DNA of 64,000 bases from an uncultured Ruminococcus sp. (GTDB lineage: Bacteria > Bacillota > Clostridia > Oscillospirales > CAG-382). This document shows positions 8,557 through 20,363 of this stretch, in pieces. The number at the start of each line of letters is the position of its first letter. Position 1 is the stretch's first letter. The notes beneath the pieces were generated by a model, which saw only the letters and a list, made by a program, of their open reading frames with translations, was not told the origin of the DNA and did no database searches. A program made the position numbers and the translations under genes. The stretch is from contig CAZASH010000003.1 of NCBI GenBank assembly GCA_964487775.1, positions 1,377 to 65,376 on the forward strand, in the 5' to 3' direction.

Positions 8557-9051
8557 ATGAATCGCTTGAACATCGTTTTGCACGAGCCCGAAATACCACA
8601 GAACACAGGCAACATCTCACGGACCTGCGCCGTCACGGGTGCTTCTCTGCATTTGATAAGGCCACTCGGGTTTGAGATAACAGACCGCAACCTGAAGCGT
8701 GCAGGGCTTGACTATTGGCAATACCTCGACATACATTACTATGACAGCATACAGGAATTTTTTGATAAAAACAGCGAAGGCAAATATTTTTATTTCACCA
8801 CCAAGGCCCGCAGAAGATACACCGATGTCACATACGACGGCAAGGTATATCTCATTTTCGGCAAAGAAACAAAGGGCTTGCCTGAGCCTTTGCTGCTCGA
8901 ACACGAGGAGCGCTGTGTGAGAATACCCATGCAGGGCTCACTGCGCAGCCTCAACCTCTCAAATTCTGTCGCAATAGCGGTCTACGAAGCGTTGAGACAG
9001 GCGGATTTTGAGGGCATGAACACGGCGGGCACGCTGTTTGAGGAGGCTTGA
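8557..9051 (+). CDS. trmL: tRNA (cytidine/uridine 34-2'-O)-methyltransferase, SPOUT family
   Basis: NIVLHEPEIPQNTGNI, RAGLDYW, LIFGKETKGLP, RIPM..RSLNLSNS. Confidence 0.93.
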   Translation: MNRLNIVLHEPEIPQNTGNISRTCAVTGASLHLIRPLGFEITDRNLKRAGLDYWQYLDIHYYDSIQEFFDKNSEGKYFYFTTKARRRYTDVTYDGKVYLIFGKETKGLPEPLLLEHEERCVRIPMQGSLRSLNLSNSVAIAVYEALRQADFEGMNTAGTLFEEA

Positions 9052-9054
9052 CAA

Positions 9055-10419
9055 GTGTATTTGACTGATACGATAGCCGCGATCTCGACACCGCACGGCA
9101 AGGGCGGCGTTGCGCTCATACGCATTTCGGGTGAAAAAGCGCTCGAAATAGCAGGCAGGGTCTTTGTTCCGTTCGGCGCAAAGTCTTTAGAGAGTGCTCC
9201 ACGCACTCAGGTATACGGCGCTTTCACGGCAGACGACGGCGAATTTGATGACGGACTTGCGTGCTATTTCAAGGCTCCGGGCAGCTTCACGGGTGAGGAT
9301 GTCGTCGAGCTGTGCTGTCACGGCGGCGTTTATTGCACTCAAAAGCTGCTTAGCGCTTGCCTTGCGGCAGGCGCAAGATACGCCATGGCGGGCGAATTTA
9401 CAAAAAGAGCGTTCACAAACGGCAAGCTTACGCTGACAGAGGCAGAAGCGATAGGCAATATCATAGATGCACGCACAGATGCAGGACTCAAGGTCTCGCT
9501 TTTGCAATCTCGCGGCAGGCTGTCGCAAAGCTTAAAGAAAATATACGACGACCTGTCACTGACGGCGGCTTCGGCATATGCATACATCGATTATCCCACC
9601 GAGGATCTTACAGAATTGACCTCAGAGCAAATGCTGCAAAAGCTGCATTCCGCACGTGACACGCTTTCAAAGCTTTGCTCGACGCACAAATACGGGCTCG
9701 CCATCAGCGAGGGCATCAAGACCGCTATCGTCGGCAAGCCGAATGTCGGCAAAAGCTCGATTTTAAACAGGCTTTCGGGCGAGGACAGAGCGATAGTTAC
9801 GCCTATCGCAGGCACTACGCGCGATGTTGTCACCGCATCAGTCAGGGTCGGTGACGTCATTCTCGAGCTTTCTGACACAGCAGGCATACGCGATAGTGAC
9901 GATATTATCGAGGCTATAGGTGTCAAAAAGAGCATCGAGGCCATAAAAAACGCCGAGCTGATACTTGCGGTGTTCGATGCCGAGGCAGGCATCACAGAGC
10001 AGGACAAAGAGATAATAGACTATATCGCTTCGGCAGGCATGAATTCAAGTGTCATTGCGATCATAAACAAAAGCGACATAGCGACAGCCGATATCAAATT
10101 GCCGTTCGAGCGCATGATAAGCTATTCGGCGATCACCGGCGAGGGCGAAGCACTCCTCGAGAACGCAATATACGACTTTGTCGGTGCGCATGACATAAAC
10201 GGCGGCGATATCATTCTCGGCGCACGCCAATACGCTGCGGCAAAAAATGCACTGAGCGAGATAAACGAAGCGATCAATGCGCTTTGCGACGGCTTTACCA
10301 CCGACATCGCGCTGATGAACATCGAGAGCGCGATGCAGTATCTGGGCGAGATGGACGGTCGTGAGGTGTCGCAAAAAATAGTTGACGATATTTTCAGCCA
10401 CTTTTGTGTAGGAAAATAA
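9055..10419 (+). CDS. mnmE: tRNA U34 modification GTPase MnmE
   Basis: DTIAAIST, PGSFTGED, GKPNVGKSS, GTTRD, DTAG, NKSD, C-terminal FCVGK. Confidence 0.97.
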   Translation: MYLTDTIAAISTPHGKGGVALIRISGEKALEIAGRVFVPFGAKSLESAPRTQVYGAFTADDGEFDDGLACYFKAPGSFTGEDVVELCCHGGVYCTQKLLSACLAAGARYAMAGEFTKRAFTNGKLTLTEAEAIGNIIDARTDAGLKVSLLQSRGRLSQSLKKIYDDLSLTAASAYAYIDYPTEDLTELTSEQMLQKLHSARDTLSKLCSTHKYGLAISEGIKTAIVGKPNVGKSSILNRLSGEDRAIVTPIAGTTRDVVTASVRVGDVILELSDTAGIRDSDDIIEAIGVKKSIEAIKNAELILAVFDAEAGITEQDKEIIDYIASAGMNSSVIAIINKSDIATADIKLPFERMISYSAITGEGEALLENAIYDFVGAHDINGGDIILGARQYAAAKNALSEINEAINALCDGFTTDIALMNIESAMQYLGEMDGREVSQKIVDDIFSHFCVGK

Positions 10420-10432
10420 CAAGGGGATTTTT

Positions 10433-12310
10433 ATGCAGAAATATTATTCAGGATATTTCGATACTGCAATTATAGGTGCGGGACACGCAGGCATCGAGGC
10501 GGCTCTTGCCTCGGCAAGGCTTGGTGCGAGCACGGCGCTTTTTACACTTTCGCTCGACCTCGTCGGCAATATGCCCTGCAACCCTGCCATAGGCGGCACG
10601 GCAAAGGGGCATCTCGTGTTTGAGATCGACGCGCTGGGCGGCGAGATGGGCAAGGCGGCAGACAAGGTCATGCTGCAGAGCCGTATGCTCAATATGTCAA
10701 AGGGACCTGCCGTCAGGTCGCTAAGAATGCAATCCGACCGCAGGGCTTATTCGGCTTATATGAAGCAGGTCATCGAGAACACAGAGAATCTCACCTTGAT
10801 ACAGGCAGAAATAACCGACATAGCTGTCGAGAACGGCGCTGTTTGCACTGTCACGACCGCATTCGGTGCCGAATATAACGTAAAAAGCGTCATTATAGCG
10901 ACAGGCACGTCACTCGGCGGCAGGATAATAGTCGGCGAAGCATCATACGAATCAGGTCCCGACAACACTCGTGCCGCAAAGACGCTCGTGCAGAGCCTTA
11001 TTGCAAACGGTGTCAGCCTGCGCAGGTTCAAGACGGGCACTCCGCCCAGGATACACGCCGACAGCATAGATTATTCTGTGCTCGAAAAGCAGGAGGGCGA
11101 CGAGCTTACAACAGTTTTTTCGTCTGACGAGCACCCAAAAAACAAATGCTGCTGCTATATCACCTACACCAACGCCGAAACTCACAGGATCATACGCGAG
11201 AACCTGCACCGCAGTCCGCTTTTTTCGGGCGAGATCAAGGGCACAGGCCCGAGATACTGCCCGAGCATAGAGGACAAGGTCACAAGGTTTGCGGACAAAG
11301 AGCGACATCAGCTTTTTATTGAGCCTATGGGCGACGACACCAAAGAAATGTACATACAGGGGCTTTCGTCGTCACTGCCCGAGGAGGTGCAAAGGCAGAT
11401 AGTCCACAGCATCAAAGGGCTTGAAAACGCCGTGATAATGCGCACCGCATACGCGATCGAATACGACTGCTGCGACCCGCTGCAATTAAAGCCGACGCTT
11501 GAATTCAAAGCGATATCGGGGCTTTTCGGAGCAGGTCAGTTCAACGGCAGCTCGGGCTATGAAGAGGCGGCGGCGCAAGGACTTATCGCAGGCATAAACG
11601 CAGGTCTCAGAGCCAAAAACGGCGGCGAATTTGTTTTGAAGCGCGACGAAAGCTATATCGGCACGCTCATCGACGACCTCGTCACCAAGGGCACGAGCGA
11701 GCCATACAGAATGATGACCTCACGCAGCGAATACAGGCTTTTGCTCAGGCAGGACAACGCGCGCAAAAGGCTCACGCCAAAGGCAAGGCGCATCGGGCTG
11801 ATACGAGACGAGCAATATTATAAATACATGCTCGACGAAGCGATACTCGCTCACGAGATAAGCAGGCTTTTTGCAGAGAGCATACCGCTCTCGCAGGGCT
11901 TAAACGACCTGCTCGTTTCGCACGGCTTTGACAAGGTCGACGGCGGAATGCGCAAGTCCGAGCTACTGCGCAGACCGGGCATAAGCATATTTGAAATATA
12001 TGCGCTCGACAGCACGTTAAATATCCCCTACAGCATCGCCTGCCGTGCAGAAACCGAAATAAAATACGAGGGCTATATCAAAAAGCAGCTTGCGGCGGCA
12101 GAGAGATTCAACGAGCTCGAAAAAAAGCTGATACCGACATCTGTCGATTACACAAAAATAGGCGGTCTGCGCATCGAAGCTGTTCAAAAGCTTTCAGCGC
12201 AGAGACCTGCCAGCATAGGTGCGGCGTCGAGGATCTCGGGTGTCAGCCCTGCCGATATTTCGGTGCTTTTGGTATATCTCGCAAAGGACGGAGGCAAAAA
12301 CAATGAATAA
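10433..12310 (+). CDS. mnmG: tRNA U34 modification FAD enzyme MnmG (GidA)
   Basis: IIGAGHAGIEAA, MPCNPAIGG, GPRYCPSIEDK, GYEEAAAQG, EPYRMMTSRSEYRL. Confidence 0.98.
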   Translation: MQKYYSGYFDTAIIGAGHAGIEAALASARLGASTALFTLSLDLVGNMPCNPAIGGTAKGHLVFEIDALGGEMGKAADKVMLQSRMLNMSKGPAVRSLRMQSDRRAYSAYMKQVIENTENLTLIQAEITDIAVENGAVCTVTTAFGAEYNVKSVIIATGTSLGGRIIVGEASYESGPDNTRAAKTLVQSLIANGVSLRRFKTGTPPRIHADSIDYSVLEKQEGDELTTVFSSDEHPKNKCCCYITYTNAETHRIIRENLHRSPLFSGEIKGTGPRYCPSIEDKVTRFADKERHQLFIEPMGDDTKEMYIQGLSSSLPEEVQRQIVHSIKGLENAVIMRTAYAIEYDCCDPLQLKPTLEFKAISGLFGAGQFNGSSGYEEAAAQGLIAGINAGLRAKNGGEFVLKRDESYIGTLIDDLVTKGTSEPYRMMTSRSEYRLLLRQDNARKRLTPKARRIGLIRDEQYYKYMLDEAILAHEISRLFAESIPLSQGLNDLLVSHGFDKVDGGMRKSELLRRPGISIFEIYALDSTLNIPYSIACRAETEIKYEGYIKKQLAAAERFNELEKKLIPTSVDYTKIGGLRIEAVQKLSAQRPASIGAASRISGVSPADISVLLVYLAKDGGKNNE

Positions 12311-13004
12311 CGCTGTCAGAATATTGCAGCAGCACATGACATCACTACCGGAGAGAGACCTGTGCAGGCTCTCGGTCATATGCGACAGGCTCGACGAAAT
12401 GAACGGCGTGCTCAACCTTACTGCGCTCAAAACGCCGGAGGACATTGCAATGCTGCACCTCTATGACTCTCTGACGCTTATGACGACAGGACTGTTTCAA
12501 GAGGGCAAAAAAGTCATCGACATAGGCTGCGGTGGCGGTTTTCCCGCACTGCCCATAGCCTCGTGTACCGATTGCAACGTCACCGCCAACGATGCCACGG
12601 CAAAAAAGCTCGCTTTCGTCGCAGACACCGCAAAAGCGGCAGGCGTTTCGATAAGCACGCTTTGTGGCAGAGCCGAAGAGCTGACACAACAGACAGAATA
12701 CCGCGAGCAATTCGACATCGCGGTTTCCAGAGGCGTGGCACGGCTCAACGTGCTTTGCGAATGGTGTATGCCATTCGTCAAAAAGGGCGGCTATTTCATA
12801 GCTATGAAAGGTCCCGGCGGCATCGATGAATACGAAGAAGCCAAAAACGGCATAAAAATACTCGGCGGCACCGATGCAGAGATAATCAAATGTCCTATTC
12901 CCACGACAGAGCGAGTTCACACGCTTATAGTGATAAAAAAGGTCTGCCCCACCCCACCCCAATATCCGAGGCAGAATTCCAAGATAAAAAAGAAGCCGCT
13001 GTGA
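12303..13004 (+). CDS. rsmG: 16S rRNA m7G methyltransferase RsmG (GidB)
   Basis: NLTA, HLYDSL, DIGCGGGFPALP, GRAEE, SRGVA, AMKG, YPR..IKKKPL; follows mnmG. Confidence 0.95.
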   Translation: MNNAVRILQQHMTSLPERDLCRLSVICDRLDEMNGVLNLTALKTPEDIAMLHLYDSLTLMTTGLFQEGKKVIDIGCGGGFPALPIASCTDCNVTANDATAKKLAFVADTAKAAGVSISTLCGRAEELTQQTEYREQFDIAVSRGVARLNVLCEWCMPFVKKGGYFIAMKGPGGIDEYEEAKNGIKILGGTDAEIIKCPIPTTERVHTLIVIKKVCPTPPQYPRQNSKIKKKPL

Positions 13005-13027
13005 TGCGGCAAAAGGAGCGATTAATA

Positions 13028-13645
13028 ATGGAGCTTAGAGACAGAAACGGCTTGACAGAGGCAGAATTTCTGGCGCAATACGATGCGTCGAAGTTCGAGC
13101 GCCCGTCTGTCACGGTCGATATTATTCTTACCTACAAGGGCAAGCTTTTGCTCATCAAGCGAGGCGGACATCCTGCACTCGGCAAATATGCGATGCCCGG
13201 CGGCTTTGTTGAAATGACCGAAACGGTCGAGCACGCCGCAGTCAGAGAGCTTACCGAAGAGACAGGCATCTCGTCTGTCGCTGTCAGACAGCTCAGGGTC
13301 TGGTCGCAGCCCGACCGTGACCCCCGCACGAGGATCATTACCGTAGCGTTTGCCGCAACATTTATAGGCGACGTTCAGGCGGCACACGCAGGCGACGACG
13401 CCGACGATGCAGGCTGGTTTGAATACAGCATCACACGTCACGACGAGACCCAAACCGAGACCGAAAGACAGCAGATAATCGACATTTCGCTCAAATGCGG
13501 CGAAAAAGAGATAAATTATTCTGTGCTAAAGTCAACCCCGATAATGCCGTTCGAGTGCGACAGCACTTATAAATTCCTGACAGATTGCCAGCTCGCAGGC
13601 GACCACGGACTCATTATCGCCGATGCGCTTGACAGGCAAAAATAG
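13028..13645 (+). CDS. Nudix hydrolase (ADP-ribose pyrophosphatase/NrtR-like Nudix domain without wHTH)
   Basis: GLTEAEFL..YD...ERPSVTVD; intact Nudix box GFVEMTETVEHAAVRELTEETGI; PDRDPRTR; AGDDA; AAGGAG RBS before 13028. Confidence 0.88.
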   Translation: MELRDRNGLTEAEFLAQYDASKFERPSVTVDIILTYKGKLLLIKRGGHPALGKYAMPGGFVEMTETVEHAAVRELTEETGISSVAVRQLRVWSQPDRDPRTRIITVAFAATFIGDVQAAHAGDDADDAGWFEYSITRHDETQTETERQQIIDISLKCGEKEINYSVLKSTPIMPFECDSTYKFLTDCQLAGDHGLIIADALDRQK

Positions 13646-13648
13646 TTG

Positions 13649-13677
13649 TTGACAAAGCCGCATGTTTGTTGTATAAT
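13649..13677 (+). promoter_or_regulatory. Consensus sigmaA promoter of tRNA-Gln
   Basis: TTGACA (13649), 17 bp, TATAAT (13672), 11 nt upstream of the tRNA. Confidence 0.9.
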
Positions 13678-13688
13678 ATGCGGTACGT

Positions 13689-13761
13689 AGGGATGTAGCC
13701 AAGTGGTTAAGGCAACGGACTTTGACTCCGTCACTCGCTGGTTCAAATCCAGCTATCCCTG
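13689..13761 (+). tRNA. tRNA-Gln (anticodon UUG), CCA not encoded
   Basis: Acceptor AGGGATG/TATCCCT, D arm GCC-AAGTGGTTAA-GGC, anticodon arm ACGGA-CTTTGAC-TCCGT, T arm GCTGG-TTCAAAT-CCAGC. Confidence 0.96.
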
Positions 13762-13763
13762 TT

Positions 13764-13794
13764 AAAAAAGCGCCGACAGGATCGGCGCTTTTTT
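13764..13794 (+). terminator. tRNA terminator
   Basis: AAAAAAGCGCCGA-cagga-TCGGCGCTTTTTT. Confidence 0.85.
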
Positions 13795-14056
13795 AAGTTA
13801 AGCGTGCCTTGCGGCACGTGAAGTGCATTTTCGGTGCGTGAAGTGATGCTTTGCATCGTGAAGTGTCTGTGGGCGTGAGTGGCACGCTTTGCTTCACGTC
13901 GTGCGCAGCGCGATGCTTCACGGCGGCTTTGCCGCTGCTTCACTTGGCGAAGCCAAGCTTCACTGATCATTTGCACGCTTAGGCGTGCTTTTTTAAGTTA
14001 AGCGTGCCTTGCGGCACGTGAAGTGCACCTTCGGTGCGTGAGGTGATGCTTTGCAT
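13787..14056. repeat. Array of GTGAAG/CTTCAC-tagged mini-hairpins (REP/BIME-like); 70 bp direct repeat at 200 bp period
   Basis: 13787-13856 and 13987-14056 match at 67/70; GTGAAG at 13818, 13838, 13858, 14018; CTTCAC at 13892, 13916, 13938, 13958; short palindromes between the tags. Confidence 0.9.
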
Positions 14057-14138
14057 TTCAAGGCAATTATACGATGCAATCGTATTTTTGCCTAAGCATT
14101 ATAGTGCGCTTTTAATTTCCCGTGTCATCATTCACAGC

Positions 14139-14178
14139 AAAAAAGCTGCCCTCGGTCGCTCCGAAGGCAGCTGTTTTT
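14139..14178 (-). terminator. Terminator of the cohesin-dockerin gene (possibly bidirectional)
   Basis: AAAAAAGCTGCCctcgg-tcgct-ccgaaGGCAGCtgTTTTT. Confidence 0.75.
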
Positions 14179-14190
14179 ATTACAATGTCG

Positions 14191-15171
14191 TTATGGCAGA
14201 AGGGCTGATATACCCTGGATATATCTCTTGATGCGCGTATAGTCAGAAACACGTATGCTGTCACGCATAGAAACATGCGCCGCTTTTTCAAACGCGCCCT
14301 CGATGGTTAGGGTGTTTTGCAGGACTCGCTTGACGATGGTATAATCGGCAACGCTTATCTTGCCGTCGCCGTTGACGTCGCCATAAAGCACGACGGTATA
14401 CCTGCTGCCGAGCGCAGTGACTATCTGGTTTGTGGCTATGGCGTCAGTCTCTTTGACCGCAGCGCCTGTGCTCTTGGTGACCTCGATGTCACAGGTGAAG
14501 TATGCACGCAGGTCCTTGATCTTGGCGTTCTGCTCTTTGACATAGATATATCCGCCGTCGATAACGGCAGGCTTGCCCTCGACGACCTCGAACACCGCCT
14601 GCTCGACTGCCGCCTTGCAAGAGCCGCCCGTGCCGTACAAAACTCCGCGCATATCAAAATCATACGCCTGAATGCTGTCATTCGGAACGACGAAAGACAC
14701 ATCCTCATATTCGCCGCGCAAAAGCTTGAACTGCACGTCAATTCTTATTGAGCCGTCATCCTTGGCGGTGGCGTTGCTGTCGGTGAGTGCCGAAAGCTCA
14801 TAATATCCGTCGCACAGCTTGCCGAAGCACTCCCATTTTGTGCTGTCGGGCGAAACGGCGAGCATTGCACTAAAATTCTCATTGAGGTTGCCGTCGTTTT
14901 TTATCAAGGGCTCGGCCTTCGTCTTGTCATACCAGAGCTTGAAAGAAACAAAGCTGAGTCCCTTGGCAGGAATTATATTGCTGACGGTGACAGAAACAGT
15001 GACTGTCTGCCCTGCATAATAAGACTCCTTGTCAGTCGTGACATTCAGGCTAAAAACAGGGTCGAGTGGAGCATCGCCGACCTCGGGCAAAGCAAGAGCC
15101 GAAAGCGAAAAAGCATATATAAGCACGAGCAAGATGCATAAAATATTCTGTATCCTTGTTTTTTTAGTCAT
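14191..15171 (-). CDS. Secreted protein with N-terminal cohesin-like domain and C-terminal dockerin
   Basis: Signal peptide ending ALA; cohesin-like GQTVTVSVTV..GLSFVSFKLWYD; dockerin YGDVNGDGKISVADYTIVKR plus degenerate second repeat AAHVSMRDSIRVSDYTRIKRYI. Confidence 0.75.
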   Translation of the reverse strand: MTKKTRIQNILCILLVLIYAFSLSALALPEVGDAPLDPVFSLNVTTDKESYYAGQTVTVSVTVSNIIPAKGLSFVSFKLWYDKTKAEPLIKNDGNLNENFSAMLAVSPDSTKWECFGKLCDGYYELSALTDSNATAKDDGSIRIDVQFKLLRGEYEDVSFVVPNDSIQAYDFDMRGVLYGTGGSCKAAVEQAVFEVVEGKPAVIDGGYIYVKEQNAKIKDLRAYFTCDIEVTKSTGAAVKETDAIATNQIVTALGSRYTVVLYGDVNGDGKISVADYTIVKRVLQNTLTIEGAFEKAAHVSMRDSIRVSDYTRIKRYIQGISALLP

Positions 15172-15212
15172 ATCGATCTCCTCGGCGGATGAAAAATGTC
15201 GTCGTTTGTCTT

Positions 15213-15241
15213 ATTTTAGCATGACTGCGCCGTGCTGTCAA
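15213..15241 (-). promoter_or_regulatory. Near-consensus sigmaA promoter of the cohesin-dockerin gene
   Basis: Minus strand: TTGACA, 17 bp, TG-n-TAAAAT. Confidence 0.75.
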
Positions 15242-15364
15242 TAGACAAAAAACGGGCTTAAAGCCTTGCTGAGATAAAAAATTTGCGTCGGTTATTGTTT
15301 TTTCACGAGGTTTATAGTATAATATAATAGAGTTATTGTATAAGAGCATAAGGAGATGTTTTTG

Positions 15365-16222
15365 ATGCGCTATCTTTACGATCTTGATATGTCAAATTAT
15401 TGCACCATGCGCGTCGGTGGCAAGGCAAAGCTTGCCTGCTTTCCGACAAACAAGGGCGAGCTCGCAGAGGCGATAGATCATTGCCTCGCCGACGCTATAC
15501 CCTACACCGTCATAGGCAACGGCTCTAACATAATTGTTGCCGATTCGGGCTATGACGGCTGCATCATATTTACAACAGGCATGGCAGAATTTAAATTTGA
15601 CGGCACTACGCTGACTGCATACGCAGGCGCATCTCTGAGCGCTGTTTCGAACGAAGCAATGAAGCTTGGCTTGTCAGGGCTTGAATTTGCATACGGCATT
15701 CCCGGCACTGTCGGCGGAGCGGTATTCATGAACGCAGGCGCATACGGCGGCGAGATCTCTGACGTTTTTAAATCGTGCAGCTGCTATAACGACAAGGGCA
15801 GGCGCATAGACCTTCAAAAGGAAGATATGGGTTTTGCATACCGTTACAGCGCACTTCAAAAGAATAATTGCACGCTGATATTGGCAGAATTTGAGCTTTG
15901 TCACGGCGACAAAGATCAGATCAAAAACATCATGGATACAAATATGCAGGCACGCAAGACAAAGCAGCCGCTCGACCTGCCGTCATGCGGCAGTGCATTC
16001 AAGCGCCCGACAGGACACTATGCCGCCGCACTTATCGAAGAAGCAGGCTTAAAGGGCTTTGCGATCGGCGGAGCGCAGGTCTCGACAAAGCATTCGGGCT
16101 TTATAGTCAACACAGGCAACGCCACGGCGAGCGATGTTTTTTGGCTCACTATGGCTGTGCGTGACCATGTCTATACACACAGCGGCGTCGAGCTCGAGCC
16201 TGAGATAAGGTTTATCGGGTGA
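15365..16222 (+). CDS. murB: UDP-N-acetylmuramate dehydrogenase
   Basis: TMRVGG, GNGSNI, GLEFAYGIPGTVGGAVFMNAGAYGGE, KQPLDLPSCGSAFKRP, STKHSGFIVN, LEPEI; start at 15362 or 15365 given the AAGGAG RBS. Confidence 0.96.
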   Translation: MRYLYDLDMSNYCTMRVGGKAKLACFPTNKGELAEAIDHCLADAIPYTVIGNGSNIIVADSGYDGCIIFTTGMAEFKFDGTTLTAYAGASLSAVSNEAMKLGLSGLEFAYGIPGTVGGAVFMNAGAYGGEISDVFKSCSCYNDKGRRIDLQKEDMGFAYRYSALQKNNCTLILAEFELCHGDKDQIKNIMDTNMQARKTKQPLDLPSCGSAFKRPTGHYAAALIEEAGLKGFAIGGAQVSTKHSGFIVNTGNATASDVFWLTMAVRDHVYTHSGVELEPEIRFIG

Positions 16223-16225
16223 GAT

Positions 16226-16897
16226 ATGTCGTTTTGCAATGAATTAAAGCAGCATCTGCTTTCTGAAGCGCCGACCTCGGAGTGCTGCCTCAATGCCTTT
16301 GAGTGCGGCAGGAACGCAGTGCCGTACCAGCCTGTCTGCGACAAATGCGACAGGGCTTATCTCAGAGCGCTTTTTGCGTACCATGGATATATTTCAGAGC
16401 CTTCAAAGCGCTGTGAGCTCGTTTTGAGGGTCGACGGCGACAACGCATACTTCGTTGCGGGAATGCTCGCCGACTGCGGAGTTCCGCCCTCCTTCGGCAA
16501 GCGGAACGGCAAAACTATTTTATATTACAAAAAGCGCGAGTCGCTCGAGGATTTTGTCACACTGCTTGGTGCGGCAAAATTTGCTGTCACGCTCAAGGAA
16601 GAGGCCGTCATTCAAGAGATACGCTGCTCTGTCAACCGCACAGGCAACGCACTCACCGCCAACATCAACCGCTCATCAAAGGCGTGTGCCGAGCAGCTCA
16701 ACGCAATAAACAGGCTCATCGAAGCAAAAGAATATCAAAAATTGCCGCCAGAGCTGCGTGAGGCGGCTGACATAAGGCTCGAGCACCCTGCCGAAAGCCT
16801 CGAGCAGCTACGTGTGTATTTTTCAGCACCTATCTCAAAATCGGGCATCAAGCACAGATTCGAGCGCATAATCGATATTGCCGACAACTTAAGCTGA
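16226..16897 (+). CDS. whiA: DNA-binding protein WhiA, shortened
   Basis: MSFCNELK start, RAYLRALF..GYISEP, C-terminal HTH LPPELREAADIRLEHP..SLEQL..ISKSGIKHRF; 223 aa. Confidence 0.82.
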   Translation: MSFCNELKQHLLSEAPTSECCLNAFECGRNAVPYQPVCDKCDRAYLRALFAYHGYISEPSKRCELVLRVDGDNAYFVAGMLADCGVPPSFGKRNGKTILYYKKRESLEDFVTLLGAAKFAVTLKEEAVIQEIRCSVNRTGNALTANINRSSKACAEQLNAINRLIEAKEYQKLPPELREAADIRLEHPAESLEQLRVYFSAPISKSGIKHRFERIIDIADNLS

Positions 16898-16934
16898 GCA
16901 AGCATTTATTAACAATCGAAAGGACACAGAAAAA

Positions 16935-19900
16935 GTGGAGTTCGTTCATCTGCACCTCCACACAGAATACAGCCTGCTTGACGGTGCGTGCCGCATAAGC
17001 GAGATACCCGAGAGAGTCAAGTCCGCAGGGCAATCAGCCGTCGCCATAACCGACCACGGTGCACTTTACGGAGCGGTGGATTTTTATCGTGCCTGCATCA
17101 AGGCCGGCATAAAGCCTATCATAGGCTGCGAGGTGTATGTCGCTCCGAGGCGCATGTCAGACAAAAAGCATCCTGTCGACTCTGATTATTCGCATCTCAT
17201 TCTGCTGGTCAAAAACGAAACAGGCTATAAAAACCTGACAAAAATAGTTTCGCTTGCATTCACCGAGGGCTTTTATCAAAAGCCGAGAACAGATATAGAA
17301 ACGATAACCAAATATCACGAGGGGCTTATATGCCTTTCTGCCTGCCTTGCGGGCGAGATACCAAAAAGCATCATAAACGGCGATCTGCAAAAAGCGACCG
17401 CCGCAGCAGAAAGATTCATGGGCATATTCGGCAATGATTTTTATCTCGAGCTGCAGCGCCACGGCATCGAAGAGGAGCTGAGAGTCAACAGCGCCATCTG
17501 CAATATTTCACGTTCGCTCGGCATAGAGCTCGTCGCCACCAACGACGTGCATTATATTTCAAAGCAGGACAGCGAATTGCAAAGACTGCTGACAGCCGTT
17601 TCGACCGCTTCTACGCTGTCCGACCTCAAGCTTGCCATGCAGGGCGACGAATATTATTTAAAATCGACAGACGAGATGCAAAAGCTGTTTGCCGACATTC
17701 CGCAGGCTATAGCAAACACAAAGGTCATTGCAGACAAATGCAGGTTTGACTTTGATTTCAGCGTCATGCACCTGCCTGCCTTTTATCCGCCAGAGCATCT
17801 TACATCGGCGGAATACCTGCGCAACCTCTGCATAGAGGGCTACAACGACCGTGTCAAGAACGGACTTATCCAAAAAAGCAAGGAATATACAGACAGGCTG
17901 ACCTATGAGCTCGGCATCATAGACAGCATGGGCTTTAACGAATACTTTCTGATAGTCCACGACTTTGTGGCATATGCAAAATACAGACATATTCCTGTCG
18001 GCCCCGGACGTGGCAGTGCGGTAGGCTCGCTTGCCGCCTATTGCCTCGGGATAACCGACGTCGATCCTATAAAATACGGCTTGCTGTTTGAGAGGTTTTT
18101 GAACCCCGAACGCATTTCCATGCCGGATATAGACATAGACTTCTGCGACGAGCGCCGTGGCGAGGTCATCGACTATGTTGCCGAAAAATACGGCAGAGAT
18201 CATGTCGCTCAGATAATAACCTTTGGCACTATGGCGGCACGTCAGGCGGTTCGAGACACAGGCAGAGCACTCGGAATATCATATTCACGCACCGATGAAT
18301 GCGCAAAGCTTATTCCGCGGCACCTCACTATCAGCGAGGCGCTCGAGAGTGTGCCCGAGCTAAAGCAATTGTGCGAGTCGGACTCTGAAATAGACAAGCT
18401 TATAGCCTATGCCAAGCGGCTCGAGGGACGTCCTCGCAATACCTCGACTCACGCAACGGGCGTGGTCATTACAGACAGACCTGTCACAGACTATGTTCCG
18501 CTTGCGGTCGGCGAAAGTGCGCCCGTGACGCAGTATACGATGAACACGATAGCCGACCTCGGCTTGCTCAAGATAGATTTTTTGGGGCTCAGGTTTCTGA
18601 CAATCATAGACAACGCAATAAAGATGGCGAACGAGAACGGCGCAGGTCTCTCGGCAGAAAAGATAAATACCGACGACGAAGCGACATATGCAATGCTTGC
18701 AAAAGGCAGGTCGATAGGTCTGTTTCAGCTTGAGAGCGACGGAATGCGCTCGTTGCTTATGCGAATGAAGCCCTATTGCTTTGAGGACATCATCTCGGTC
18801 ATCAGTCTTTACAGGCCCGGCCCGATGGACAGCATAGGCAGATTTCTGGCAGGCAGAGCAGACCAAAACGCAGTCGAATACGCTCATCCCCTGCTAAAGC
18901 CTGTATTAGGCGGCACATACGGCTGCATAATCTATCAGGAGCAGGTCATGCAGATATGCCGCACGCTGGCAGGCTTCACCTATGGTCACGCCGACGTTCT
19001 GCGTCAGGCGATGAAAAAGAAAAAAGCAGAAATAATGGACGTCGAAAAAAAGGCGTTCGTCGAGGGCGCAGCCGCAAACGGCGTCAGCGAAAAGGTCGCA
19101 AACGAAATATTTGCGCAGATGCGCGAGTTTGCAAGATACGCCTTCAACAAGAGCCATGCGGCGGCATATGCGGTCGTGGCTTACAGAACAGCTTATCTCA
19201 AATGCCATTATCCTGCTGAATATATGTGCGCACTGCTTCGCTCGGTCATGGGCGACACCGCAAAGGTCAAGCAGTATATCGACGAATGCACAGACATGGG
19301 CATCAAGGTCTATCCACCCGACGTCAACAGGAGCTTTGAAAATTTTGCGCTCGAGGATGGCGGCATACGATTTGGACTTGCTTCTATCAAAAACGTCGGC
19401 ACGGCGTTCGCACGCAACCTGATAACAGAGCGCCAAAAGAGGCCTTTCGGGTCGCCTGCCGATCTCATAGAGCGAACAGCAGTTTACGGCAACGTTCGTA
19501 TGCTCGAAGCGCTCATAAGATGCGGAGCGCTCGACAGCTTCGGCATATATCGCAGCAGGCTGATGAGCGTGCTTGATGCGGCGGTCGAATCTGTTTCAAG
19601 GCGGCGCAGCAAAAGCTATGAGGGGCAGTTGTCGCTCTTTGGCGGTGACGACGTGGATGCGGAATTGCAGCTCGACTACCGTGAGATAGACGAGTTTCCG
19701 TTATCGGCAAGGCTTGCCGACGAAAAATACCTCTCGGGACTTTATCTCTCGGGACACCCTCTCGACAGATACAGAGCGTATATAGAAAGCAGCGATGCAA
19801 AAAACACGAGGCAGCTTTATGAGGGGCTTACCTCCGGTGCTATAAAAGAAAAATCTGTTGTCAACTTTGTCGGCATGATAGCAAAAAAGCGCGACATAGT

Positions 19901-20363
19901 GACAAAAGCGTCAGGCAAGCGCATGGCGATACTCACTTTGGAGGATCTCTATGGCGAAGTCGAGATGACCGTGTTCCCAAAGGATCACGAAAAGGTCAGC
20001 GCACTTTTGAATGTCGGCGGCATTTATCGCTTTGTCTGCGAGGCAAGGCTTGAGGACGCCGCAGGCGACGACGAGCAGGATACCGTCAAGCTGATATTCA
20101 GATCCGCAAAAATGCTCGGAGAGGGCGAAGCGGCACAAACGCCGCGCAAGCTGTTTTTGCGCATCACACCGCAGAACGAGCATTTATTGATGCAGGCGGT
20201 CGAAATGCTCAAAAAGCATCCGGGCGCCGATGCGATACGCATATATTATGTTTCAACAGGCAAGCTCACCGCTCCAAAAAGCGGCGGCTGCAATATATCC
20301 GACGAGCTTATCTTTAGGCTCAAGGCTCTTTTGGGTGACGACAACGTCGCCGTAAAGGACTGA
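16935..20363 (+). CDS. dnaE: DNA polymerase III alpha subunit, DnaE type
   Basis: FVHLHLHTEYSLLDG, GPGRGSAVGS, FLNPERISMPDIDIDF, KIDFLGL, YAFNKSHAA. Confidence 0.98.
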   Translation: MEFVHLHLHTEYSLLDGACRISEIPERVKSAGQSAVAITDHGALYGAVDFYRACIKAGIKPIIGCEVYVAPRRMSDKKHPVDSDYSHLILLVKNETGYKNLTKIVSLAFTEGFYQKPRTDIETITKYHEGLICLSACLAGEIPKSIINGDLQKATAAAERFMGIFGNDFYLELQRHGIEEELRVNSAICNISRSLGIELVATNDVHYISKQDSELQRLLTAVSTASTLSDLKLAMQGDEYYLKSTDEMQKLFADIPQAIANTKVIADKCRFDFDFSVMHLPAFYPPEHLTSAEYLRNLCIEGYNDRVKNGLIQKSKEYTDRLTYELGIIDSMGFNEYFLIVHDFVAYAKYRHIPVGPGRGSAVGSLAAYCLGITDVDPIKYGLLFERFLNPERISMPDIDIDFCDERRGEVIDYVAEKYGRDHVAQIITFGTMAARQAVRDTGRALGISYSRTDECAKLIPRHLTISEALESVPELKQLCESDSEIDKLIAYAKRLEGRPRNTSTHATGVVITDRPVTDYVPLAVGESAPVTQYTMNTIADLGLLKIDFLGLRFLTIIDNAIKMANENGAGLSAEKINTDDEATYAMLAKGRSIGLFQLESDGMRSLLMRMKPYCFEDIISVISLYRPGPMDSIGRFLAGRADQNAVEYAHPLLKPVLGGTYGCIIYQEQVMQICRTLAGFTYGHADVLRQAMKKKKAEIMDVEKKAFVEGAAANGVSEKVANEIFAQMREFARYAFNKSHAAAYAVVAYRTAYLKCHYPAEYMCALLRSVMGDTAKVKQYIDECTDMGIKVYPPDVNRSFENFALEDGGIRFGLASIKNVGTAFARNLITERQKRPFGSPADLIERTAVYGNVRMLEALIRCGALDSFGIYRSRLMSVLDAAVESVSRRRSKSYEGQLSLFGGDDVDAELQLDYREIDEFPLSARLADEKYLSGLYLSGHPLDRYRAYIESSDAKNTRQLYEGLTSGAIKEKSVVNFVGMIAKKRDIVTKASGKRMAILTLEDLYGEVEMTVFPKDHEKVSALLNVGGIYRFVCEARLEDAAGDDEQDTVKLIFRSAKMLGEGEAAQTPRKLFLRITPQNEHLLMQAVEMLKKHPGADAIRIYYVSTGKLTAPKSGGCNISDELIFRLKALLGDDNVAVKD

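Follow-up and report, generated by a model that had tools for sequence, protein, structure and literature searches.

A two-arm Gut-1-family element behind tRNA-Gln in a Clostridia-type bacterium as the possible folded head of small cassettes

Background

Gut-1 (RF01706) was described in 2010 as a motif of three hairpins with GUGAAAU linkers, found in human gut metagenomes only and left without an assigned organism, context or function, and in its published alignment a tRNA and a terminator lie upstream and AUAUCAC repeats downstream (Weinberg et al., PMC2864571). Here we analyze an array of short hairpins and repeated heptamers at positions 13795-14113 of a 64-kb chromosomal stretch of a Clostridia-type bacterium (the whole stretch is referred to as the window), located behind a tRNA-Gln gene. 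A sequence-only reading had taken this array for an undescribed family, a claim that fails because its left arm is Gut-1 and the family is already catalogued in Rfam (PMC2864571). The array shares with Gut-1 the three short hairpins with GUGAAAU-type linkers, the occurrence in gut bacteria and an alignment over the full length of the model. The Rfam model, however, is only 77 nt long and omits an inverted second arm, a long-range helix (P1), a terminator-like first hairpin, the polarity relative to tRNA genes and the cassette behavior reported below. No publication on Gut-1 after 2010 was found in the searchable literature, and to our knowledge the two-arm architecture, the alternative between P1 and the first hairpin (H1), the tRNA polarity, the presence/absence polymorphism and the link to four-helix-bundle (4HB) cassettes are undescribed in that literature.

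Other known systems resemble the array in part. Repetitive extragenic palindromic (REP) sequences and bacterial interspersed mosaic elements (BIMEs) of Proteobacteria also have a short conserved tag beside a palindrome, inverted pairs and an extragenic position at gene 3′ ends; unlike them, the array is multi-module with palindromes that all differ, keeps a strict 20-nt phase, occurs at low density and has no gene for a REP-associated tyrosine transposase (RAYT) nearby. Integron cassettes are likewise small units with or without a gene, held in tandem at a fixed site, each marked by an attC site, an imperfect palindrome that is conserved in structure, variable in sequence and provided with inverted 7-nt boxes. 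The differences from integrons are that a tRNA 3′ end replaces attI, that there is no intI, that the structured site heads the unit rather than trails it and that recombination is conjecture here. For the integron core pair RYYYAAC/GTTRRRY, the unit-start GTTAAGC fits GTTRRRY and the inverse core was not found, and no integrase genes were present among the neighbors of 91 arrays. Staphylococcal cassette chromosome (SCC) composite islands at rlmH and the cis-mobilizable elements (CIMEs) found next to integrative and conjugative elements are similar in that recombinase-less units accumulate at a conserved gene 3′ end, and serine-recombinase genes or their remnants lie beside some arrays; in contrast to those systems, no recombinase is tied to the arrays and no tRNA-end direct repeat occurs in the window or at 38 other loci. 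As for iteron- and centromere-like arrays, the heptamers here are in 20-bp phase, and none of the adjacent genes in the window is of the rep, par or regulator type.

The reading that we favor, with a confidence no higher than the midpoint of the scale, is that 13795-14113 consists of 1.6 tandem gene-less copies of a Gut-1-family cassette element that would act in cis as the folded head of its cassette, and is neither a small RNA (sRNA) gene nor a REP/RAYT element. The working form would be the tRNA-sense strand folded as a single-stranded nucleic acid, and this structured head could serve as a recognition or recombination site or as an insulating or processing site for its unit, with the repeated heptamer presumably read by a lineage-specific trans-acting factor. 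The elements keep one polarity directly behind terminator-like hairpins, mostly after tRNA genes and otherwise after a protein gene or another unit, and the cassettes are gained and lost as discrete units, many of which carry a small 4HB gene that the window copy lacks.

Results

Identity with Gut-1 and anatomy of the family

With relaxed thresholds, an Rfam search aligned 13795-13869 to positions 1-77 of the 77-position Gut-1 model at 48.9 bits (E 6.6e-9), with three hairpins (H1-H3) joined by GUGAAGU linkers as in the Gut-1 definition. The curated gathering score of the family is 50 bits, and the window copy falls under it because its tag is GUGAAGU; judged from this alignment, it is a divergent family member just short of the cut-off. 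The left arms of homologous elements score 52-90 bits against Gut-1, and the right arm of one relative matches the model on the minus strand at 51.8 bits, which passes the cut-off. The right arm is, by these model matches, the Gut-1 motif inverted.

The module is not confined to the window, and its architecture was seen again at hundreds of independent loci. A pattern scan of species-representative genomes gave at least 120 matches, about 60 of them true arrays among the matches listed (a limit that applies to all genome-array and two-arm counts below), nearly all in metagenome-assembled genomes (MAGs) of gut and rumen Clostridia and several per genome, and a scan of metagenome contigs for the two-arm form gave at least about 100 elements. 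Only 2 of 45 pattern matches in viral contigs were true arrays and BLAST against PLSDB and INPHARED gave no match, and a phage or plasmid origin was rejected on these results.

Family elements share a fixed order, running from a terminator-like hairpin through a leader that is itself a degenerate tag, H1, three (sometimes four) modules of tag plus hairpin and a centre to four antitags with hairpins; the centre consists of the H1 3′ arm repeated together with the complement of the leader. The tag is lineage-specific (GTGAAAT, GTGATAT, GTGATGT or GTGAAGT) and constant within one MAG, and the antitag tracks the tag type. Spacers between tags are exactly 13 nt in 110 of 193 cases. Stems differ in each module and show compensatory change between paralogues of one genome (loci L014 and L023).

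One-arm Gut-1 arrays were also seen. At L004, L010 and L079, the array leads into an apical domain, which GTTGAGGA/TCCTCAAC-type pairing closes, and then into four to five heptads (TATTCAC, TATTAC or TATTCAT) that directly adjoin one another without intervening hairpins. The heptads equal the tags in number, and some match the tags by G.U pairing. At L110 and L119, a one-arm array ends about 15-20 nt before the ribosome-binding site of an open reading frame (ORF), where it would form a 5′ untranslated region (UTR); we take this ORF to be HD-domain-like from its N-terminal sequence.

Polarity relative to tRNA genes

The polarity of the elements relative to tRNA genes is fixed. Of 86 two-arm elements, 39 have a complete tRNA on the same strand no more than 130 nt upstream, with 22 anticodon types represented, while no tRNA on the opposite strand lies upstream of any of the 86 and none faces the right arm in 54 cases. 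Other two-arm elements come after a fragment of a tRNA 3′ end, a protein gene or another unit. Among one-arm arrays, the upstream ORF is co-oriented in 30 and opposed in 8. In the GTGATAT subfamily, the array lies between a stop codon and a terminator, that is, in a 3′ UTR, and its first hairpin lacks a U-run.

An island bounded by repeats of the tRNA 3′ end was considered and rejected, since no second copy of the tRNA-Gln 3′ end is present in the window and no downstream direct repeat of a tRNA 3′ end occurs within up to 13 kb at 38 other loci. At four loci (L026, 2237-2600; L082, 5340-5850; L094, 5690-5990; L001, 1730-2072), an insert of about 190-230 bp separates a complete tRNA from a direct repeat of its 3′ end (19-50 nt), behind which come the terminator and array; at L082 the insert is itself tandemly duplicated. 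The insert has the look of a small element in its own right, directed at tRNA 3′ ends.

Presence, absence and cassette behavior

The element is dispensable between near-identical strains. Strains with a 98%-identical NUDIX protein and the same synteny have an intergenic region of 226 bp, compared with 545 bp in the window, and the short allele contains tRNA-Gln, a homologous terminator and then the flank. The missing segment of about 319 bp is flanked by repeated GYGCTTTT(TT)A(A)GTT behind terminator T-runs, with breakpoints that are ambiguous within the repeats 13785-13799, 13985-13999 and 14104-14118. As for the features of a miniature inverted-repeat transposable element, the arms are inverted at the heptamers only, and the 13-15-nt junction repeats (at 13785, 13985 and 14104) belong to terminator-leader sequence and need not be a target-site duplication made by insertion. 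GCA_964571635.1 is a relative with an empty site. At the tRNA-Gln site, the hairpin array of a 90% relative is a different one, and a 75% relative has none. The array of the 90% relative (L305/L306, about 2235-2358) starts directly after the tRNA-Gln terminator and has loops GCA, GAA and GTA and linkers AACATCG, CACCG and TTCG; the contigs end inside it.

Units of terminator plus array behave as discrete cassettes. Identical units occur behind tRNA-Pro, tRNA-Arg and tRNA-Trp in different MAGs, and an identical unit of about 1.15 kb, composed of the terminator, the array, a near-consensus promoter, a 4HB gene and a MazG-like gene, was found behind tRNA-Pro, behind tRNA-Arg and beside an intact large serine recombinase gene. 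The left junction of this unit is invariably CCA/GAAAAG (the slash marks the boundary), and alleles of the tRNA-Pro locus diverge exactly past CCA. One 4HB cassette, located behind the conserved 3′ end of another cassette, has at its head a 79% homologue of the window element that shows compensatory changes both in P1 and in the stems of the right arm. That the array is a discrete unit of gain and loss, as the sequence-only reading had supposed for a mobile element, is borne out by the filled and empty alleles of near-identical strains and by the identical units behind different tRNAs.

Many cassettes encode a 4HB protein of 115-130 aa from the family (TIGR02436, PF05635) of Avd of diversity-generating retroelements and of the 23S rRNA intervening-sequence proteins. 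Its coding sequence lies within 600 nt downstream of 26 of 82 two-arm elements, and in about one third of elements (L176, L180, L183, L212, L226, L273, L308-L317 and others) the gene lies 30-75 nt past the right arm, which in these cassettes abuts a near-consensus promoter, TTCACA-17-TATAAT. No significant tblastn match to the 4HB gene was found in the window. One 4HB variant (100% identical protein) is indexed in 644 blocks of the collection. A motif at cassette 3′ ends, TTTTTACCTC...GCACCGTTTGG...CTCTTT(C/A/G)GCA, directly precedes the next GAAAAG-terminator at L176 (about 1556-1620), L227 (two copies), L273 and L308-L317 (about 2180-2240).

Several arrays have a large serine recombinase gene, or what remains of its C-terminal part (DUF4368), just upstream or downstream (L308, 1-1049; L226, 4742-8224; L177; L224; L240; remnants at L309-L317, about 2371-2454, and L318/L319, 2401-2703). 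The gene is intact at L308 and L226 and ends there 250-450 bp ahead of the CCA that precedes the terminator and array. Serine-recombinase similarity is confined to a handful of other array loci and is absent from the window locus.

Folding, covariation and strand

The 200-nt first unit of the window array folds better than its shuffles both as RNA (z -3.1 on the plus and -3.7 on the minus strand) and as DNA (z -4.6 and -3.8 on the two strands). In 22 diverse elements, the leader and the H1 5′ arm pair with the centre over 14 pairs to form P1 (13800-13808 with 13881-13889 in the window); P1 is 90.9% paired in these elements with 9 pairs altered on both sides, compared with about 40% in slid controls. 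H1 is 97.7% paired across family elements. P1 and H1 are mutually exclusive because both use the same 5′ strand, and the family thus has a covarying long-range helix that competes with a hairpin.

The hairpins of the family are near-perfect palindromes, with 2194 Watson-Crick, 20 GU and 23 AC pairs in 400 distinct hairpins, and 5-bp stems with 3-nt loops are strictly kept. Loop asymmetry is strong, TNC on the tag strand being GNA on the other, so that the right arm has GAA and GCA on the plus strand. With the arms taken each on its own tag strand, GU and AC are balanced (20:23); with both taken on the tRNA-sense strand, GU exceeds AC by about 2:1 in each arm, an excess that is suggestive but not decisive. 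The window copy has eight G.T and no A.C pairs, with G.T at the seventh position of all three rungs formed by tags and antitags, where relatives have U-A. Together, the GU excess and the G.T pairs of the window copy point to the tRNA-sense strand folding as one molecule.

Pairing of tags with inverted tags, which had been proposed from the sequence alone, held up in that complementarity within the rungs is 90-99% and predicted folds contain them. It gained no support from covariation: at the rung-flanking positions 0 and 8 the true register pairs no better than shifted registers, and mixed-tag elements compared rung by rung show no mirroring between arms. For these reasons, and because the heptamers are near-invariant, a pairing of one arm with the other is no more than a possibility.

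Scarce wobble pairs and loops of 3 nt are no less suited to DNA than to RNA, and d(C-GNA-G) minihairpins are very stable as DNA. Template-switch correction of quasi-palindromes, a known mutational process, could mimic covariation.

The locus in the window

The gene order around the array is mnmE, mnmG, rsmG, NUDIX, tRNA-Gln(UUG), a dockerin-domain gene, murB, whiA and dnaE. The array lies in a gap of 545 bp that separates NUDIX from the dockerin-domain gene (326 aa, minus strand), which lies on the other side of the array from tRNA-Gln. Housekeeping genes make up the ORFs listed for window positions 9000-20000. The mnmE, mnmG and rsmG genes, which are commonly close to the replication origin, occupy 8527-13004. 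The features are as follows.

13688-13762, plus strand: tRNA-Gln (UUG), with promoter TTGACA-17-TATAAT at 13649-13677
13764-13794, plus strand: H0a, a bidirectional terminator-like hairpin, A6-GCGCCGA-CAGGA-TCGGCGC-T6
13795-14113, no strand: segment of about 319 bp absent from close relatives
13795-13994, plus strand: unit 1, a complete two-arm element with its own terminator, 200 bp
13795-13869, plus strand: left arm, the full-length Gut-1 (RF01706) match, starting with the leader AAGTTAAGC
13804-13817, 13825-13837 and 13845-13857, plus strand: left-arm hairpins H1, H2 and H3
13818, 13838 and 13858, plus strand: starts of the GTGAAGT tags, spaced exactly 20 bp apart around 13-nt hairpins
13800-13808, plus strand: 5′ strand of the long-range helix P1, AAGCGTGCC, overlapping the H1 5′ arm
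13865-13890, plus strand: centre, with a degenerate tag GTGAGT at 13875-13880
13881-13889, plus strand: 3′ strand of P1, GGCACGCTT, within the centre
13891-13963, plus strand: right arm, a weak Gut-1 match on the minus strand (22.1 bits)
13891, 13915, 13937 and 13957, plus strand: starts of the four GCTTCAC antitags
13898-13914, 13922-13936 and 13944-13956, plus strand: right-arm hairpins, with loops GCA, TTT and GAA
13973-13994, plus strand: terminator hairpin H0b, GCACGC-TTAG-GCGTGC plus T6, which closes unit 1 and regenerates the junction sequence GTGCTTTTTTAAGTT
13995-14113, plus strand: unit 2, a truncated second copy (Gut-1 score 29.3 bits)

The tags, antitags, hairpins, terminator, duplication and extra hairpin described from the sequence alone were all found at their positions. 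H0a is kept, with compensatory changes, in strains without the array. Unit 2 runs in the order leader, H1, tag, H2 (a perfect GCACC/GGTGC), degenerate tag GTGAGGT and H3, continues with an unrelated hairpin at 14061-14093 and ends in GTGCGCTTTT, which resembles an H0 3′ half. The partial duplication (13787-13856 repeated at 13987-14056, 67/70 identical) is genuine and not an assembly artefact, since 13640-14195 is the same, apart from one SNP, in two independent ENA assemblies, and the k-mer assemblies (Logan unitigs) break within the repeat. The heptamer GTGAAGT is not enriched across the window (8 observed against 5.6 expected), and four of the eight copies lie in the array in strict phase. 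A candidate promoter on the minus strand, TAGGCA-17-TATAAT at 14066-14094, sits inside the 14061-14093 hairpin and is directed toward the array and the bidirectional tRNA terminator; this promoter-like site could drive minus-strand transcription across the array.

Discussion

The observations on polarity, discrete cassettes and the P1/H1 alternative have to be set against several points that weigh against a cassette head acting in cis. The array is followed by a terminator in the window, and the same holds for the GTGATAT subfamily with its arrays in 3′ UTRs; these positions suggest that the array is probably transcribed, which favors an RNA. The difference between filled and empty alleles could equally be explained by deletion between the 13-15-bp direct repeats. 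All-against-all clustering of 1594 neighbor ORFs revealed no recurrent family of recombinases, transposases, integrases or Y1/HUH enzymes within about 4 kb of 91 arrays, and since tRNA 3′ ends are integration hot spots, the serine recombinases near some arrays may merely reflect that location. The insertion point appears to lie after the T-run in the window but before the terminator, at CCA, in the 4HB cassettes, and there is only one such locus in the 64 kb.

The main rival is a structured noncoding RNA, which we hold to be possible though clearly less probable than a cassette head. Read-through from the tRNA or upstream gene past a leaky first hairpin would yield a trailer of about 200 nt carrying the hairpins, the heptamer rungs and a P1/H1 switch, which might affect stability or processing, or might soak up, as a sponge, a GUGAAGU-recognizing RNA-binding protein. 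This was the original reading of Gut-1, which Rfam classes as an sRNA with covariation, and it is consistent with the fixed sense-direction polarity, with a plus-strand terminator that closes the unit and with the GTGATAT subfamily, in which the array sits between stop codon and terminator and the first hairpin has no U-run. The 2:1 excess of GU on the sense strand, the U.G pairs in all three window rungs where relatives have U-A, a G.U to A-U change through one SNP between strains, the riboswitch-like alternatives P1 and H1, and one-arm forms (L004, L010, L079) with an equal number of contiguous antitags and G.U matches also fit an RNA. However, the array mostly lies right behind a strong terminator-like hairpin with a U-run, and in 4HB cassettes it is upstream of the cassette promoter and thus outside that 4HB mRNA. 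GU makes up only about 1% of stem pairs, the loops are 3 nt long (C-UNC-G or C-GNA-G) instead of RNA-typical tetraloops, the pairing register is ambiguous because the tags are identical, the element is dispensable between near-identical strains and no conserved promoter was found over 22 tRNA contexts. A multi-hairpin RNA made by tRNA read-through, which the sequence-only reading had offered as its second choice, is still a credible alternative.

It is rather unlikely, in our estimate, that two-arm Gut-1 elements are attC-like folded single-strand sites of an unrecognized Clostridia gene-cassette system that stacks at tRNA 3′ ends, with 4HB as its commonest cargo and the window copy as an empty cassette pair. 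More doubtful still is a REP/BIME-like element moved by a Y1/HUH enzyme (a RAYT or an IS200/IS605 TnpA) acting on lagging-strand-template hairpins with the heptamer as guide or cleavage motif. Such an element, as first proposed for this locus, agrees with a dispersed family of tag and palindrome modules in both orientations, with perfect palindromes that lack wobble bias when pooled, with GNA loops that are very stable in DNA and confined to one strand, with an orientation bias that agrees with gene and replication direction, and with a site that is polymorphic among close strains. It is at odds with stems that differ per module and evolve by compensatory change (L014 and L023), where REPs share one sequence, with a density of one locus in 64 kb and with a fixed architecture of 3-4 modules, centre and P1 in place of free-standing REPs, and the nearby Y1/HUH gene that it would lead one to expect was not found, as neither a Y1 transposase nor any other recurrent enzyme occurs within about 4 kb of 91 arrays. 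We regard as least probable of all a double-stranded array of heptamer sites, like iterons, ParR centromeres or omega-type operators, to which a small protein would bind cooperatively and so regulate the cassette promoter or organize local DNA. The strict 20-bp phase with 110 of 193 spacers at exactly 13 nt, the heptamers in direct and inverted order with a type constant per genome, the right arm abutting TTCACA-17-TATAAT in cassettes and the contiguous, hairpin-free heptads of some relatives would suit such an array, but it leaves the distinct perfect palindromes with compensatory change and the covarying P1 unexplained, and no DNA-binding gene is linked to it in the window. Repeated protein binding on one face of the DNA, which the sequence-only reading had proposed for the two-turn spacing, is a conjecture. 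Both the REP/RAYT element and the double-stranded binding array are thus less likely than the sense-strand RNA trailer. Type III antitoxin repeats, CRISPR-like arrays, Tn7-like ends and integron attC sites proper were also weighed and dropped over mismatched periods, boxes or linked genes.

Conclusions

Covariation in short perfect palindromes is not by itself proof of an RNA, a caution that bears on how Gut-1 is read. The orphan motif Gut-1 makes up one half of a larger element of fixed polarity that is associated with terminators and with the ends of tRNA genes. This element is gained or lost between near-identical strains and often heads small cassettes with a four-helix-bundle gene. An unexplained motif thereby becomes a testable system.
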